Source: a virus. From it: 64,000 nucleotides of DNA. Both the position numbers and the translations under genes were made by a program. The notes beneath the pieces are model-generated. The model saw only the letters and a program-made list of their open reading frames with translations, was not told where the DNA came from and ran no database searches. This document shows, one piece after another, positions 1,626 through 31,727 of this stretch (positions are counted from its first letter, which is position 1; every line of letters begins with the position of its first letter). The stretch lies in IMG/VR virus record IMGVR_UViG_3300022746_000018. One strand, 5' to 3'.

Positions 1626-1654
1626 ACTAGTAGAAACGAACAAAGGACAGAAAA

Positions 1655-1831
1655 ATGATGACTCGCAAAGACTATGTAGCAACCGCAGAGATTTTGAACG
1701 AATACAAGGACAAGATTGACTTTTTGATTTTGGCAGACATCGCTGAAGACTTTGCTGAAATGTTTGCTGAAGACAATGAGCGTTTCAACCACCAGCGTTT
1801 TATTGACGCAGTATTCGCAGAGGGGAACTAA
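1655..1831 (+). CDS. hypothetical early protein (58 aa)
   Basis: RBS AAAGGACAGAAAA. Hand-translated MMTRKDYVATAEIL...AEGN. The stop overlaps the next start (TAATG). Confidence 0.6.
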   Translation: MMTRKDYVATAEILNEYKDKIDFLILADIAEDFAEMFAEDNERFNHQRFIDAVFAEGN

Positions 1832-9483: not shown

Positions 9484-10026
9484 ATGCATACTTTACATTG
9501 GATTGCAGTAAAAGACGTAGAAGATAAAGACATGGCTCTACGCACAGTCACAAATAACCTAGAAGCCCTAATGGGAGACGAATACTCTGGTGGCACTTGG
9601 TTTGACTGGTTTGTTGCTGGTGGTGGACGCTGGAATGTTGAAGAAGGCGAAGACTTTGCAGAAGCATATAAAGACTATAAGACTAATATGATTATCTCTT
9701 TTGAGGAAGAGCCTGACCTATTTGAAGAGCGTGTCCTTCTGTCTATGGAAGCACGTAAGTCAGAGTTTGATAGTTATGCTAAAGACGTGAAGCCAGAGTT
9801 GCTTACTAAGATTATTAGTGAATACAATCCACGTGAGATTGACTGGTCTATTACTATGGATGTTTATCCTATCAAGAAGGTTATTGATATGGCATATGGA
9901 GAGTGGGATTTCAACTCTTATTTCTATGACATGGAAAATACTTCAACTACCCCGAAATATATGTTTGAAACTATTGACAAGGGCGACAAGAACTGGTATA
10001 TTGTTCCTGTAGACTTCCACTTCTAA
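9484..10026 (+). CDS. hypothetical protein (180 aa)
   Basis: Track ORF with the RBS GAGAAAGAACCCC. Confidence 0.8.
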   Translation: MHTLHWIAVKDVEDKDMALRTVTNNLEALMGDEYSGGTWFDWFVAGGGRWNVEEGEDFAEAYKDYKTNMIISFEEEPDLFEERVLLSMEARKSEFDSYAKDVKPELLTKIISEYNPREIDWSITMDVYPIKKVIDMAYGEWDFNSYFYDMENTSTTPKYMFETIDKGDKNWYIVPVDFHF

Positions 10027-10038
10027 GGAGAACCCCAA

Positions 10039-10179
10039 ATGGAATACAAAATTACACTAGTTCATTCACCAAGTGGTCAGTATCTAGAGTTTTATGCTGA
10101 CCTTGATGAGTTTGATGAACAAGACATTGCTGATGATATTATTTCTAATTGTTACGTTTCTGTGGAGTGTGTGGAGTAG
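10039..10179 (+). CDS. hypothetical mini-protein (46 aa)
   Basis: RBS AAGGAGAACCCCAA. Hand-translated MEYKITLVHSPSGQY... Confidence 0.55.
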   Translation: MEYKITLVHSPSGQYLEFYADLDEFDEQDIADDIISNCYVSVECVE

Positions 10180-10182
10180 ATA

Positions 10183-10602
10183 ATGTCTAAGTTTTATACA
10201 TATGACGCTTGGGTTCGTGAGTTTCAACCTATCAAGAATACTATCACTAAGTATCCTGACATTCTTCACTTTGAAACTTATGGTGAGGAAGTAGAGTTTG
10301 TTCAGAAGGCAGATAACAAGTATATCTGGACTGAAGTAGATGGTGATAGTGGCACTTACATTATTGCAGGGTATCACTATGTGAACCGTATCCATTACTA
10401 CATTACAGAGAACCCTTGGGACGATGAGTATACCGAGGTTCCTACTTGGGTATACCGCCGTTGTGACTGCACCGAGGAAGATGGTTTCGAAGACGGTAAC
10501 CCAGATTGCACTGAATGCGAGTATGGTGACATTGATATCTCTATTGATACTATCGAAGACCTAAAGCAGATTTATGGAGAGGAGGCCAACATTGTTAGTT
10601 AA
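10183..10602 (+). CDS. hypothetical protein (139 aa)
   Basis: Track ORF. Confidence 0.75.
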   Translation: MSKFYTYDAWVREFQPIKNTITKYPDILHFETYGEEVEFVQKADNKYIWTEVDGDSGTYIIAGYHYVNRIHYYITENPWDDEYTEVPTWVYRRCDCTEEDGFEDGNPDCTECEYGDIDISIDTIEDLKQIYGEEANIVS

Positions 10603-16151: not shown

Positions 16152-17318
16152 TTAGTCTCCCTTTACGTTAATAATCTGTCTTAGTGTGTGTCTAATCTTT
16201 ACTAAATCTTTTGCATCTTCCATAACAACATCAATATCTTTGTATGCATTTGGATGTTCGTCAATGAATGCATCGGAGTGTGACCATTCAATACCCTCCA
16301 TCATAGCATCCAAAGACTCTTTTGTAAAGGTCTTACGTGCTTCATTGCGAGAATATTCACGTCCAGCCCCATGTGGTGCAGTGCAGAATGATAACCTATT
16401 TCCAAGTCCCTCAACTACATACGAGGCAGTTCCCATTGATCCTGGAATAAGACCCATCTGTCCTTCATTGGCAGAGATAGCACCCTTACGAGTTATCCAC
16501 AAGTCTTTGCCCCAATGATTCTCAGGCTGAGTAAAGTTGTGATGACAGTTAATTTCTTCAATGATCTCAAAGTCTCCTGCGTGGTGCTTGAAAGCCTTCT
16601 TGACACGCTCCATCATTACTTCACGATTCTTAAATGCAAACTTCTGTGCCCAAGTCATTTCAGCAATATAGCGATCGAATTCTGGAGTGCCTTCTACAAG
16701 GTATGCCAAGTCTGGATCTACAAGGATAATGAAGTTCTTCTTAGCATACTCTTGTGCAACAGCAATGTGATGTGTAGCAATCTTGTTACCAACTCCACGT
16801 GAACCTGAGTGCAGGAATAGCCAGATAGACCCCTCTTCATCTTTCGTAATCTCAATAAAGTGATTGCCAGATCCAAGCGAACCAATCTGGTGTGTCCAGT
16901 TGCTTGCATACTCAGATGGATTAAATCCTGCGTCCAATGCAGACTCTAAAAGTTCTTCTGCTGCATCAAGTGCGTCTGGCTTGACTGTCTGATTATGCTT
17001 AAAAGCTGACAGTGGAATAGCAGACTCAATTGACTCTCGTAATCTTTTAAGGTCCACGGTAGCCAAATCATCTACAGTCTTATTAGTCTTAATAGCCATC
17101 ATTCCACAACCAATATCCACGCCAATTGCAGCTGGCATAATTGCTCCCTGCGTAGGAATTACAGAACCGACAGTTGACCCCTTGCCAAGGTGTGCGTCTG
17201 GCATTAAGGCTAGGTGTGGAAATATGAACGGCATTGATGAAGTCACTTTAGCCTGTTCAAGTGTCTTTTCATCTAAGATGGATGCCCAGTTAAATAGTTT
17301 GTTAGTTATTTGTTTCAC
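16152..17318 (-). CDS. rtcB: RtcB-family RNA 3'-phosphate ligase
   Basis: MPDAHLGKGSTVG, GCGM and GSGNHFIE motifs typical of RtcB. A GTG at 17318 follows AAGGAGAG and overlaps the upstream stop (GTGA). Confidence 0.9.
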   Translation of the reverse strand: MKQITNKLFNWASILDEKTLEQAKVTSSMPFIFPHLALMPDAHLGKGSTVGSVIPTQGAIMPAAIGVDIGCGMMAIKTNKTVDDLATVDLKRLRESIESAIPLSAFKHNQTVKPDALDAAEELLESALDAGFNPSEYASNWTHQIGSLGSGNHFIEITKDEEGSIWLFLHSGSRGVGNKIATHHIAVAQEYAKKNFIILVDPDLAYLVEGTPEFDRYIAEMTWAQKFAFKNREVMMERVKKAFKHHAGDFEIIEEINCHHNFTQPENHWGKDLWITRKGAISANEGQMGLIPGSMGTASYVVEGLGNRLSFCTAPHGAGREYSRNEARKTFTKESLDAMMEGIEWSHSDAFIDEHPNAYKDIDVVMEDAKDLVKIRHTLRQIINVKGD

Positions 17319-17512
17319 TTGTTCTCTCCTTTGATAACATCCTGTAACCATTCAAGACTACTTACAACCTCTGGATAGTCGCTGTTTTCAATGAATTCAT
17401 CGATGATGCCATTGATGCGTTCACGCTCTTGCTTTGCCCCAAGGTCGATGTCCTCTTGGCGAAGTGCTTGCCCCTGACGGACAAGTTCTCTTAGGTGTTC
17501 TTCCCTGCTCAT
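17315..17512 (-). CDS. hypothetical protein (65 aa)
   Basis: Track ORF. Confidence 0.7.
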   Translation of the reverse strand: MSREEHLRELVRQGQALRQEDIDLGAKQERERINGIIDEFIENSDYPEVVSSLEWLQDVIKGENK

Positions 17513-18813: not shown

Positions 18814-18817
18814 ATGG

Positions 18818-18894
18818 TCCTCCAGGTGGGACTTGAACCCACGTGTCACCAACTACGGTTTCAACACCTTATAAGAGTGAGCCGATACTAGAGG
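18818..18894 (-). tRNA. tRNA-like element with canonical acceptor/T-arm but non-canonical core
   Basis: Acceptor CCUCUAG/CUGGAGG and T arm GUGGG-UUCAAGU-CCCAC are clean. I could not fold a normal D arm or a 5-bp anticodon arm. The best hairpin is CACU-CUUAUAA-GGUG. Confidence 0.35.
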
Positions 18895-18902
18895 CTATTG
18901 AA

Positions 18903-19454
18903 TTATAGAGTTGTGATTAAAGAGTCTATTTGTTTATGCAACTCTTCTATCGAACCGTTATTCAATATTACACCATCAAATGGGAAGTTGTCAAGTGCTG
19001 TCTCAGAATTGTGTGCATTTACTGCTTCAACTCCATCCTTAACTACCCTGAAAACCTTTCCGTAATAAGACTTAATCTGAGCAAACTCATTAGGAAATCG
19101 AACATCTGTAAACACTACCTGACTATCAGAACTAACTTTGTTCTGTTGCCATGCTTGATGAACCCAAAAATCTGTTCCAAACATTTGTCTGCCAACCTCA
19201 GTTCCCATTCTTTGCAGTAGTCCACGAACCTGTGGTGACGATTGCTTAACCAACTCCCAGCCAAGACTATCTACAGCAGAACGAAGATGAACTCCTGGAA
19301 CCTCTGGGATATCAGAAATTATTGGGTCAAGTCTATACAGTGCTTCACGCAATGGGTCTGCAAATGCGATACGTTTGAAGCCATAGTTTGTAACCAAATG
19401 CTGTGCAATAGTATCTTTGCCTGTTTGAGCGTATCCGCTAAGACCAATAATCAT
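18903..19454 (-). CDS. deoxynucleoside monophosphate kinase-like P-loop protein
   Basis: Internal ATG (19454) of the track ORF, ATGA coupling. GLSGYAQTGKDT Walker A; resembles phage dNMP kinases. Confidence 0.7.
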   Translation of the reverse strand: MIIGLSGYAQTGKDTIAQHLVTNYGFKRIAFADPLREALYRLDPIISDIPEVPGVHLRSAVDSLGWELVKQSSPQVRGLLQRMGTEVGRQMFGTDFWVHQAWQQNKVSSDSQVVFTDVRFPNEFAQIKSYYGKVFRVVKDGVEAVNAHNSETALDNFPFDGVILNNGSIEELHKQIDSLITTL

Positions 19455-29276: not shown

Positions 29277-29305
29277 ATTATAGCACTAGAACTACTTGCC
29301 GTCAA
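29277..29305 (-). promoter_or_regulatory. promoter TTGACG-N17-TATAAT driving tRNA-Thr and the endolysin
   Basis: -35 at 29305-29300, inside the HNH gene 3' end; -10 at 29282-29277. Confidence 0.65.
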
Positions 29306-29726
29306 GTGGTTTGTGTGGTTTAATTAAAAGCTTCATGTTTGCCTGTTCTGGAGTGCGTCCACCTTTTTTCAGATTACATTCCCTGCAGCAAGCAACAGTA
29401 TTAAGCCAGGTAGACATTCCATCCTGGCATCTTGGAATAACGTGATCTACAGTAGTGGCATGTTTCTTACAGTATGCACAAACATTATTATCTCTACGAA
29501 GCACTGCTTCCTTGGAGTATTGATTCTTACGAATCTCATACTTCCAACGAGCATAGATATACTTAACCAGCTGGACAGCCTTTGGGATAATAAAAGAACC
29601 CACAGAATCATCCGTGGGCGTGATAATGCTTACTACACCCCGATGAAGCATGGTTAGTGCTTTCTTAACAGATACTGTCATTAGAAGTTCTGTTCCGCCT
29701 TGGTTATATACTGCTACGTTTGTCAT
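29292..29726 (-). CDS. HNH endonuclease
   Basis: CAYC...DHVIP...N....CC..CN..K pattern. Confidence 0.85.
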   Translation of the reverse strand: MTNVAVYNQGGTELLMTVSVKKALTMLHRGVVSIITPTDDSVGSFIIPKAVQLVKYIYARWKYEIRKNQYSKEAVLRRDNNVCAYCKKHATTVDHVIPRCQDGMSTWLNTVACCRECNLKKGGRTPEQANMKLLIKPHKPLDGK

Positions 29727-29741
29727 AATGATTCTATTATA

Positions 29742-30470
29742 CTATATGTCCATGCTTTTGAAAAATAGACGTTTTATATGATTCTTAATATTATAAATCT
29801 TACTTGGTCCACGACCATCGATGTAAAACTTTTGGAAAACATATTTTTCGGAATAGGTTCTAATTAGTTTATGTCTAGAGTCAGCATACTCGTTAAAGTC
29901 TTTATACAATTCTGGATTTTCACGAATGTCTTTTGCTTTTAATGAAAAGTTTTCGACTGTGTTTCTTTCAATTGGAAAAAAACAGAATAGTGGATCTCCC
30001 TTTTTAAATTCTACCGTGCCAGGTTCAATAAACTTAAAGTTATAGGTAAAAGTAAATGGCAACCAGTCAGTCTCTACGATAGCATCTAGTGGTTTTAGGA
30101 TGCCATAGTCATGATTTGGAATACCACGAATATAAAGAGAATAATTTTCTGGTGTTGTAATCAAAAAGTCTGGAAGAATTGTAAGAACAGATTCTCCAAA
30201 ATGAGTAACAAATCTTACTGGATCAAATTTTGGATCATCTGAGAATACCTCTACATCATTGTGCTTTGTTCCTCCATACCAAGAAACGGTAAAATCTACT
30301 GGAGATGCTACAGCCCAACCATATTGATTGGCAATGCCTAATGGCAAACACTTATATACAAACTTCTCTTTGCTATTATGCATCCAGTCTCTTTGCATGG
30401 TAAGGGGAACAATATCAAAATATTTATTCTCTATGCCGTCAAGGTAATTTGCAATAATTTCTTTAGACAT
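29742..30470 (-). CDS. conserved hypothetical protein (DUF6065-like, tentative)
   Basis: 242-aa track ORF. The family name is from memory only. Confidence 0.75.
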   Translation of the reverse strand: MSKEIIANYLDGIENKYFDIVPLTMQRDWMHNSKEKFVYKCLPLGIANQYGWAVASPVDFTVSWYGGTKHNDVEVFSDDPKFDPVRFVTHFGESVLTILPDFLITTPENYSLYIRGIPNHDYGILKPLDAIVETDWLPFTFTYNFKFIEPGTVEFKKGDPLFCFFPIERNTVENFSLKAKDIRENPELYKDFNEYADSRHKLIRTYSEKYVFQKFYIDGRGPSKIYNIKNHIKRLFFKSMDI

Positions 30471-30489
30471 TCTATCTCTTTCTTACTTG

Positions 30490-30563
30490 TGGGAAATACA
30501 GGATTCGAACCTGTGACATTTTGCTCCGTAGGCAAACGCTCTAATCCTCTGAGCTAATTTCCC
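30490..30563 (-). tRNA. tRNA-Arg (anticodon ACG)
   Basis: Clean cloverleaf with anticodon arm UUUGC-CUACGGA-GCAAA. Confidence 0.85.
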
Positions 30564-30731
30564 ATTTGCCAATCGTGCACCGTTTTATGTTCGCATACCA
30601 TTGGCTGTATATCCTAGTCCTCGCATTAGGCATAGGGTCCATGAGTCTGAACACTTTCACCCTACCGCTGGGACAGCGTAATTTTCGGATACACATATCT
30701 TAGTATAAGTTGTTCAGACTTATACCTTGAG
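30564..30731 (-). ncRNA. structured inter-tRNA spacer 1 (putative stable RNA)
   Basis: No ORF of 60 aa or more. Hairpin GTATAAG/CTTATAC spans 30703-30725. Its loop TGTTCAGA (30711-30718) is complementary to TCTGAACA (30646-30653). Confidence 0.3.
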
Positions 30732-30805
30732 CGATCTGTATGGGACTTGAACCCACGACCCCCACCGTGACAGGGTGGTGCTCTAACCAACTGAGCTAAC
30801 AGACC
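30732..30805 (-). tRNA. tRNA-Asp (anticodon GTC)
   Basis: Anticodon arm CCACC-CUGUCAC-GGUGG. G-U pairs occur in the acceptor and T stems. Confidence 0.8.
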
Positions 30806-30997
30806 AAATGTGAGAAGGTGGATTGTCTATTACCACCAAGGAGAAGTCTAGATACCATTAGATATCGCCTTAATCCTACCACAGCCTTGCTCCGCTAAGA
30901 GCAGGGACGCTAATCCCAGCCATGTGCCTTTCTCATTCCATCTAGACAAGGAACTTCGTTCAGCCATTCTCCAGACCTCTCGTCAGAGATCTGTTTG
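30806..30997 (-). ncRNA. structured inter-tRNA spacer 2 (putative stable RNA)
   Basis: Several hairpins, including GGTGG...CCACC, CCTTGCTC...GAGCAGGG and CAGACCTCT...AGAGATCTG. Confidence 0.3.
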
Positions 30998-31068
30998 AGC
31001 GAATAGCGAGAATCGAACTCGCATTATCTGCTTGGAAGGCAGAAGTTTTACCACTAAACTATATTCGC
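30998..31068 (-). tRNA. tRNA-Gly (anticodon TCC)
   Basis: Anticodon arm UCUGC-CUUCCAA-GCAGA with a perfect acceptor. Confidence 0.85.
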
Positions 31069-31232
31069 AGTTGAGATGTCAGATTAATCAGATCTACATC
31101 TCTGAGTCGTTTCCTAAGACGAGTGACCAACTCCGAACCGATAACGAGAGATTCCTACACGCTTACTGTATCGCTGTAAGGGCGTTCATTTGTCCGAAAT
31201 GAAACGGTTGTGATAGTGATTATCTATCAACG
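31069..31232 (-). ncRNA. structured inter-tRNA spacer 3 (putative stable RNA)
   Basis: Hairpins GAGATGT...ACATCTC and CGT-TTCCTAAG-ACG. No ORF of 60 aa or more. Confidence 0.3.
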
Positions 31233-31305
31233 CTGGTCCAGTAGGATTCGAACCTACAACCGATCGGTTAACAGCCGATTGCACCGCCAATTGTGCTATG
31301 GACCA
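31233..31305 (-). tRNA. tRNA-Asn (anticodon GTT)
   Basis: Anticodon arm AUCGG-CUGUUAA-CCGAU. The 5' end overlaps the endonuclease VII stop by 10 nt. Confidence 0.85.
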
Positions 31306-31727
31306 AGATACTCTATAAGTCTTTGTAAAACGACTTTAGAATCTTTTAACAATCCCAATGCCGTATTACATTGATTACAAAGTATGCCACGAATACAACT
31401 TCCACAACTTCTATTGCCTGGGCAACAAGAATGGTCATGGTCTATATTTGTAGCTTTGTTTGTTTTACAAGTATAGCATTTGCCATCAAATTTGTCAACC
31501 ATTTCATCGAACTTTTCTTTTGAAATGTGATGCCTTTTCCAGTTAAAATCTTTACCTGTATTTATTCTATTTTTAATTGTTCTTTGTTCGTCATTATTTT
31601 TATAGTAATTAACCATGTAATCAGAGTGGCATTGCTTACAAATATTTCTTCTGCCATCTTTATAGGCTTTACCCTTGGCAAAAAGCTCAATGTCCTTGCT
31701 CTGATTACATTTATTACATATCTTCAT
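31296..31727 (-). CDS. recombination endonuclease VII
   Basis: NIDHDHSCC...CGSCIRGILCNQCNTALG, the Endo VII zinc/HNH-like signature. Confidence 0.85.
   Translation of the reverse strand: MKICNKCNQSKDIELFAKGKAYKDGRRNICKQCHSDYMVNYYKNNDEQRTIKNRINTGKDFNWKRHHISKEKFDEMVDKFDGKCYTCKTNKATNIDHDHSCCPGNRSCGSCIRGILCNQCNTALGLLKDSKVVLQRLIEYLGP

Follow-up and report, generated by a model that had tools for sequence, protein, structure and literature searches.

Structured RNAs lodged among the transfer RNA (tRNA) genes of phages are a known kind of element. In phage T4, rnaD begins 1 nucleotide (nt) after tRNA-Arg and rnaC 6 nt after rnaD; the two are annotated as small stable RNAs of 119-139 nt and are released by tRNA processing. 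GOLLD and ROOL are phage and prophage RNAs that occur near tRNA islands and form nanocages (PMC12286853, PMC5737381), and many GOLLD RNAs exceed 800 nt (PMC12286853). The manA RNA, itself already known, was first reported from marine metagenomes and T4-like cyanophages and put forward as a candidate riboswitch (Weinberg et al. 2010, PMC2864571). According to a preprint of July 2026, which used in vitro cryo-electron microscopy and makes no mention of tRNAs, manA forms octamers, decamers and a 60-subunit icosahedral cage, all closed homo-oligomers held by intermolecular kissing loops (bioRxiv 10.64898/2026.07.01.735769). Here we describe a tRNA array from a 64,000-nt stretch of viral DNA (IMG/VR record IMGVR_UViG_3300022746_000018, hereafter the window), in which four tRNA genes alternate one-for-one with three different structured RNAs. 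One of the three is manA; the other two belong to RNA families that have not been catalogued. All three are conserved in related loci, show covariation, lie between tRNAs and vary among relatives as cassettes.

The closest parallels to this array are rnaC and rnaD of T4 and the tRNA-linked GOLLD and ROOL. The comparison with T4, drawn in the first-pass annotation of the window, is apt in layout: in both arrays non-tRNA RNAs are packed within a few nt of a tRNA (here 0-7 nt), and just as the T4 array holds the homing endonuclease gene segB, the window array is bracketed by endonuclease open reading frames (ORFs). The two differ in that the T4 pair stands together at the end of its array, whereas the RNAs of the window alternate with tRNAs. 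Like the RNAs described here, GOLLD and ROOL are phage-encoded and adjacent to or within tRNA arrays, but they are many hundreds of nt long as against 163-191 nt for the window spacers, and their Rfam models found no match in the window or in 18 related loci. The manA copy is directly packed with tRNAs, as it is in the cyanophages S-CREM1 and S-SSM7, but resides in a phage whose terminase is nearest to those of Streptomyces phages, not T4-like cyanophages.

The array spans 30489-31305 on the minus strand. ARAGORN and Rfam agree on its four tRNAs, which in transcription order are those for Asn, Gly, Asp and Arg-ACG, and none of which encodes CCA in its sequence. In this order the components are:

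31232-31305, minus strand: tRNA-Asn (GTT), which opens the array; CCA not encoded; ARAGORN, and Rfam tRNA model at 66.6 bits
31069-31231: spacer 3, 163 nt, between tRNA-Asn and tRNA-Gly
30997-31068, minus strand: tRNA-Gly (TCC); ARAGORN, and Rfam tRNA model at 75.5 bits
30806-30996: spacer 2, 191 nt, between tRNA-Gly and tRNA-Asp
30731-30805, minus strand: tRNA-Asp (GTC); ARAGORN and Rfam
30564-30730: spacer 1, 167 nt, between tRNA-Asp and tRNA-Arg
30489-30563, minus strand: tRNA-Arg (ACG), which closes the array; ARAGORN and Rfam
29742-30470: DUF6065 gene, 18 nt downstream of tRNA-Arg

The first-pass annotation had proposed that the spacers could be novel stable RNAs that tRNA processing would set free. 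The long gaps on which it relied are real, each of its lengths (168, 192 and 164 nt) being one nt too high, and the tight spacing that it noted in the other two tRNA clusters of the window was recovered as gaps of 3, 16, 4 and 6 nt plus one 1-nt overlap. It was also right that the spacers are richer in G+C than their surroundings (0.43-0.50 in the array versus 0.27-0.40 in the flanks), that they hold no ORF of 60 or more amino acids (the longest have 56, at 31032-31202 on the plus strand, and 51, at 30541-30696 on the minus strand) and that they do not resemble each other, as the manA model and our covariance models R1 (family 1, below) and R2 (family 3, 3' domain only) each match their own spacer only. 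Novelty holds for spacers 1 and 3, which have no Rfam match at E<=10, but not for spacer 2, which is the known manA (RF01745). Degenerate tRNAs, transfer-messenger RNA (tmRNA) and conserved small ORFs were each tested for the spacers and rejected; ARAGORN at a relaxed threshold (80%) calls no tRNA in any of them, the Rfam tRNA model RF00005 is silent, and no reading frame is kept among family members. Compared with shuffled sequences, the folding energies give z = -3.47 for spacer 1, -2.39 for spacer 2 and -0.36 for spacer 3. Thermodynamics alone therefore fails to support spacer 3, whereas conservation and covariation do support it; each of the three spacers is a conserved, structured RNA encoded on the same strand as the tRNAs and marked by compensatory base changes. 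In one of the other clusters, at about 18815-18909 on the minus strand and directly after tRNA-Leu(TAA), ARAGORN calls a 95-nt tRNA-Ile(TAT) with a long insertion at the relaxed threshold only, and Rfam tRNA is silent there; the end of 18894 given earlier for that cluster probably took in this call.

Spacer 2 is manA RNA. Positions 30807-30990 (minus strand) match RF01745 from position 1 to 192 of its 192 (cmscan), with 65.9 bits against a gathering score of 55.2 and E = 1.5e-14. The copy is divergent, marine cyanophage copies being listed at 120-173 bits, and it lacks one peripheral hairpin (model positions 100-115); its outer closing helix GAGAA/UUCUC and its core hairpins are intact. The match is separated by 6 nt from tRNA-Gly upstream and by 1 nt from tRNA-Asp downstream, and the first helix of the RNA extends to 30993. 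In a search of 1.2 kilobases (kb), the manA model had no match in spacers 1 or 3 at E<=10. Beyond the window, manA is packed against tRNA genes in seven other arrays, usually on both sides: five uncultivated loci (L033, L082, L029, L154 and L156) and the cultured cyanophages S-CREM1 and S-SSM7. Gaps in the five loci are 0-7 nt, with the exception of a 19-nt gap between the L029 copy and its downstream tRNA; in L154 the sequence directly upstream of manA has a tRNA-like end, but no tRNA is called there. The S-CREM1 annotation already shows the arrangement tRNA-Leu (10132-10213), manA (10215-10429) and tRNA-Asn (10429-10501), a further ground against the novelty of spacer 2, and in S-SSM7 manA ends, by Rfam coordinates, one base before tRNA-Gly. 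Among seven manA copies located in tRNA arrays, 22 of 42 predicted pairs covary. Some observations on these genomes stand apart. In S-SSM7 (L162, NC_015287), the hypothetical ORF SSSM7_180 (151441-151572) lies almost wholly within manA (151363-151563) and extends into tRNA-Gly, and has probably been called as a gene in error. S-CREM1 (L159, OP535465) has an unannotated stretch of tRNA-like appearance in the 170-nt gap between tRNA-Met and tRNA-Leu (9962-10131). L156 is a 3.3-kb contig that carries 15 tRNAs and its manA copy.

Spacer 1 belongs to an uncatalogued RNA family (family 1) for which there is good support. Pattern scans of IMG/VR and metagenomes, followed by the covariance model R1, yielded 12 distinct copies in viral and metagenome contigs. 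The six helices of the common fold are paired in 97.5% of cells, with compensatory changes at 26 of the 44 pairs. Not one shuffle out of 500 attains these values, and controls with the structure slid along the alignment give 29-39% paired and 4-7 compensatory pairs. In an alignment made by MAFFT only and not fitted to structure, 17 of 31 pairs already covary. The many G-U pairs establish that the RNA is on the same strand as the tRNAs. Its elements in the window are:

30564-30730, minus strand: family-1 RNA, 167 nt, R1 score 172.2 bits
30703-30725, minus strand: helix P1
30711-30717, minus strand: loop L1, CUGAACA, the seven-base loop of hairpin P1, whose stem covaries
30687-94 with 30607-14, minus strand: helix P2
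30667-74 with 30617-24, minus strand: helix P3
30659-65 with 30632-38, minus strand: helix P4
30644-55, minus strand: helix P5
30647-30652, minus strand: loop L5, GUUCAG, a six-base loop on a covarying 3-bp (base-pair) stem, fully complementary to L1
30568-30605, minus strand: helix P6

The first-pass annotation had pointed to the hairpin at 30703-30725 and to a complement of its loop at 30646-30653, which might form a pseudoknot or kissing interaction. Both are exactly as it described, and the complementary segments CUGAAC and GUUCAG lie in two hairpin loops, both unchanged in 11 of the 12 members; the twelfth, the divergent L093, keeps the loop pairing with one G-U. Many unpaired nucleotides in the junctions are invariant, and no reading frame is conserved among the members. 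Wherever flanking tRNA calls are available, the family-1 copy fills the gap between two tRNAs, and its neighbours vary: Asp, Gly or Asn upstream and Arg, Thr, Glu, Trp or Ile downstream. The copy in L154 lies between a phage tmRNA and tRNA-Trp. On that metagenome contig (JACCDQ011294238.1; 8699-9271 and 9674-9854), the family-1 RNA adjoins the end of the tmRNA (130 bits) with no gap, tRNA-Trp comes next, and the manA copy is about 400 nt beyond this block. In L156, the family-1 RNA is followed by a degenerate tRNA (1628-1754, minus strand; Rfam 44.8 bits at 1683-1754, no ARAGORN call).

Spacer 3 belongs to a second uncatalogued RNA family (family 3), again without an Rfam match at E<=10. A search with a 23-mer taken from the 3' half of spacer 3 gave 10 IMG/VR contigs, and R2 matches 14 distinct sequences in 16 loci, every one of them in a tRNA array; weak R2 matches in L154 (9373-9460) and L115 were rejected on inspection. 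A full-length alignment by MAFFT and RNAalifold was dropped, the non-homologous 5' halves being misaligned in it, and the 3' domain was modelled instead. Pairing in this domain extends to 97.7% of cells, and compensatory changes are seen at 16 of the 19 pairs, as against 1-3 in slid controls. A local core hairpin GAGU/ACUC was rejected because a U-to-C change breaks its pairing in three sequences. The features in the window are:

31069-31231, minus strand: family-3 RNA, 163 nt, R2 score 105.3 bits; conserved 3' domain at 31069-31162
31212-31228, minus strand: first hairpin P1, loop AUAAUCA (UAAUCA at 31217-31222)
31073-31102, minus strand: terminal hairpin, loop CUGAUUA (UGAUUA at 31085-31090)

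The stem of P1 differs in sequence between subtypes yet always pairs, and 9 of the 11 stem pairs of the terminal hairpin show compensatory changes. The loops of these first and last hairpins are complementary over 5-7 nt in every member, mostly as UAAUCA:UGAUUA. L082 and L141 carry a swapped loop pair, AUUAC:GUAAU, which is compatible with the other type over only 2-3 nt; the swap is one covariation event that favours a loop-loop contact. We assessed this pairing from a table of loop complementarity and dropped a column-wise count, as the swap in L082 and L141 is one position out of register. Unusual tRNA-like genes, which score 42-47 bits with Rfam tRNA and some of which ARAGORN calls with a two-base 'anticodon ga', were seen directly after the family-3 RNA in L023 (297-365), L027 (1974-2042), L030 (2507-2574), L082 (5263-5331) and L141 (3997-4064), and upstream of it in L029 (2308-2376); they may be non-standard or suppressor tRNAs.

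IMG/VR and metagenome contigs were the sole source of relatives for families 1 and 3. Searching each of the three spacers by blastn against 50,697 GenBank phages revealed no homologues, and a family-1 scan of genome contigs gave one coding false positive and no bacterial or prophage copy; 4 of the 10 metagenome matches in the family-1 scan were coding false positives as well. Neither R1 nor R2 had a match in T4, P-SSM2, S-SSM7, S-CREM1 or the first 50 kb of Streptomyces phage Gilson. Run with filters off on the T4 region, the two models returned noise only and left rnaC and rnaD unmatched; families 1 and 3 are not related to these in sequence or structure.

A comparison with relatives shows that the RNAs come and go at fixed places. 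Of the loci recovered through the flanks of the DUF6065 gene, one relative, L001 (IMGVR_UViG_3300047560_001886), was informative, and the other 20 lack these RNAs. Positions 1-716 of L001 align to 30471-31320 of the window, and the surrounding 5 kb are 86.7% identical. In L001, tRNA-Trp occupies the slot of the window manA and a different sequence stands in for the 5' half of spacer 3, whereas tRNA-Asp together with spacer 1 (242 nt) is 100% identical against the 86.7% background, which could reflect selection or recent exchange. Across 157 loci, the same tRNA junctions are either at most 20 nt long or hold inserts of discrete sizes. The exchange of manA for tRNA-Trp and the variable inserts at the junctions indicate that the RNAs behave as cassettes interchangeable with tRNAs. 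Other recurrent inserts between tRNAs in the 157 loci measure about 61, 68, 98 and 271 nt, and further inserts in the four loci checked (L141, L023, L027 and L031) have no Rfam match. A recurrent hairpin element of about 50 nt (UAAUGGUUCCGCUUGCACCACUCC...) occupies the Asn-to-Gly junction in L025 (1389-1437), L030 (2212-2260), L033 (4775-4825), L027 (1677-1728) and L031 (3182-3232); it is at this same junction that S-CREM1 has a 37-nt 'abiF' match (10531-10567), between tRNA-Asn and tRNA-Gly. The array of the window is itself bracketed by two endonuclease ORFs, which are a possible driver of cassette exchange:

31296-31727, minus strand: Endonuclease VII-like ORF directly upstream of the array (Pfam PF02945, 2.7e-18), its 3' end overlapping tRNA-Asn by 10 nt
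29292-29726, minus strand: HNH ORF (PF14279, PF01844)

How would these RNAs be made, and in what form would they act? We think it probable that the array is one tRNA operon in which the four tRNAs and three unrelated, independently folding RNA genes are co-transcribed and the RNAs excised as stand-alone particles. From sequence and position we infer co-transcription, excision, stability, action in trans and oligomerization of the three RNAs as follows. The array would be read as a single minus-strand precursor; no terminator-like site was found on the minus strand within it, and one candidate promoter lies about 165 nt upstream of tRNA-Asn, although such sites are in total no more frequent than expected from shuffled sequence in a consensus scan:

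31470-31498, minus strand: candidate sigma-70-like promoter, TTGACA, 17 nt, TATACT, with TG; 11 of 12 consensus positions

Host RNase P would cut the 5' end of each tRNA and, because none of these tRNAs encodes CCA, an RNase Z-type enzyme would cut after each discriminator base. Each structured RNA is separated by 0-7 nt from the tRNA before it and by 0-2 nt from the one behind it, and the same cuts would therefore release discrete RNAs of about 165-190 nt, in amounts equal to those of the tRNAs; excision by tRNA processing, as proposed in the first-pass annotation, is thus well in keeping with the close abutment. Compact multi-helix folds, locked by a conserved pair of complementary hairpin loops, would confer stability, and in families 1 and 3 the pairing of the loops may be either intramolecular or intermolecular. 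Once free, the RNAs would act as stand-alone folded particles and not as cis-regulators of a downstream gene. At the level of DNA, RNA cassettes would be swapped with tRNAs at tRNA junctions.

Several points weigh against this reading. The phage is uncultivated and its array is known here from sequence alone. Whole spacer 3, with the z-score given above, folds no better than shuffled sequence; the 5' half of family 3 is not conserved between subtypes, and no common structure was derived for it. Its loop pairing rests on the one swap event, and the loop pair of family 1 never varies, which leaves the interaction itself without covariation support. The pair counts of both families (26 of 44 and 16 of 19) come from alignments fitted to their own models, which favours structure. 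The identity of spacer 1 between the window and L001 could stem from recent recombination and not from constraint. Moreover, some manA copies are found in positions resembling 5' untranslated regions (5' UTRs) without a tRNA, as in P-SSM2 between regA and purL, and the manA family is therefore not tied to tRNA processing.

A more far-reaching version of the stand-alone particle reading is conceivable, and we put it forward tentatively: families 1 and 3 may be self-assembling RNA-only particles like manA, GOLLD and ROOL, and phage tRNA arrays a general home for small cage- or ring-forming RNAs of diverse kinds. GOLLD and ROOL are held together by kissing loops; oligomerization of families 1 and 3 is hypothesized by analogy with manA in vitro. 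Each loop and its complement (CUGAAC/GUUCAG in family 1, UAAUCA/UGAUUA in family 3) would then pair head to tail between molecules to give rings or cages. Made in amounts equal to the phage tRNAs, such particles might serve in warfare over tRNAs and translation, for instance by keeping tRNAs sequestered or shielded, or by drawing off host anticodon nucleases as decoys; the window also encodes an RtcB tRNA ligase.

Among the other explanations, the one that survives best, unlikely as we consider it, is that the RNAs are processing aids or insulators, which prevent tRNA misfolding or present sites to RNase P and RNase Z and are then degraded. Their occurrence strictly between tRNAs would suit such a task, complementarity of the first and last loops of family 3 would draw the flanking tRNAs together, and any role would be accessory, since these phages do without a spacer at most of their tRNA junctions. 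However, three unrelated elaborate folds with invariant loops and junctions far exceed what insulation needs, the same junctions work with gaps of 0-4 nt in relatives, and manA is also found away from tRNAs and forms defined particles on its own.

We give slightly less credence to the idea that the RNAs are riboswitch-like leaders acting in cis, in which a ligand controls read-through or processing of the next tRNA or of the DUF6065 gene. The riboswitch proposal for manA rested on its 5'-UTR positions (PMC2864571). In P-SSM2 manA does lie upstream of purL, and the family-1 junctions, rich in invariant unpaired nucleotides, are reminiscent of ligand-binding cores. In the window and six other arrays, however, tRNAs stand on both sides, mostly at 0-7 nt, which leaves no room for an expression platform; there is no terminator or anti-terminator, downstream ORF or ribosome-binding site before the next tRNA, and there is no constancy in the tRNA that follows (Arg, Thr, Glu, Trp or Ile). 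The 'cis-regulatory' label of manA presupposes a 5'-UTR position, whereas the copies in the window, L033, L082, L156 and S-CREM1 are flanked by tRNAs; the window copy lies outside any 5' UTR, so that the label is not appropriate here. Our preference is for a particle that acts in trans and has a link to the biology of tRNAs or translation, not for a cis-regulator.

It is improbable that the RNAs are no more than selfish mobile DNA cassettes, spread by homing endonucleases or recombination at tRNA genes, with an RNA structure that is incidental or serves mobility only. Presence and absence do vary at fixed junctions, with tRNA-Trp replacing manA in L001; the Endonuclease VII-like and HNH ORFs bracket the array in the manner of segB in T4, and spacer 1 is unchanged within a diverged background. 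Nevertheless, compensatory changes and strand-specific G-U pairs show long-term selection on the fold in all three families, the elements have neither terminal repeats nor coding capacity, and mobility accounts for spread but not for retention of a fold.

More doubtful still is the proposal that one or both of families 1 and 3 represent new self-cleaving ribozymes, which excise themselves from the tRNA precursor. Self-cleaving ribozymes are common in phage DNA, and family 1 combines a pseudoknot-like loop pairing with invariant junction nucleotides, but no Rfam ribozyme matches at E<=10, no conserved cleavage-site signature was identified, and tRNA enzymes already set both ends. That the spacers are decayed tRNA genes or short protein-coding genes, as their location in a tRNA array and stop-free stretches of 25-56 codons might suggest, is effectively refuted by the silence of the tRNA searches even at relaxed thresholds, by stop-free frames that differ in frame and length between members in alignments with 1-2-nt indels, and by a substitution pattern that is that of paired RNA.

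The wider genome offers some context for a phage so rich in tRNA genes. Its terminase is 55% identical to those of Streptomyces phages of Stanwilliamsviridae, and the window also encodes a ribonucleotide reductase, a DnaB-like helicase and a DNA polymerase. The RtcB-type tRNA/RNA ligase is encoded at 16152-17351 on the minus strand (PHROG 1075, E = 1.8e-144) in a phage that has 13 tRNAs, a combination that hints at conflict with tRNA-cleaving defences of the host.

What is new here are two RNA families, the recognition that manA copies form part of tRNA operons, and an array in which tRNAs alternate one-for-one with three distinct RNAs. The packing of manA against tRNAs argues against the 'cis-regulatory' label for these copies, and this tRNA context, absent from the preprint on its cages, groups manA with GOLLD, ROOL and T4 rnaC and rnaD as an RNA of tRNA operons. 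S-CREM1 and S-SSM7, being cultured, give a route to manA in infected cells. Families 1 and 3 are small RNA candidates with covariation support and a built-in complementary loop pair, easy to make and to test for self-assembly. Together with the several further uncatalogued cassettes at the same junctions, they would allow a comparative and structural approach to the purpose of the extra stable RNAs in phage tRNA clusters.

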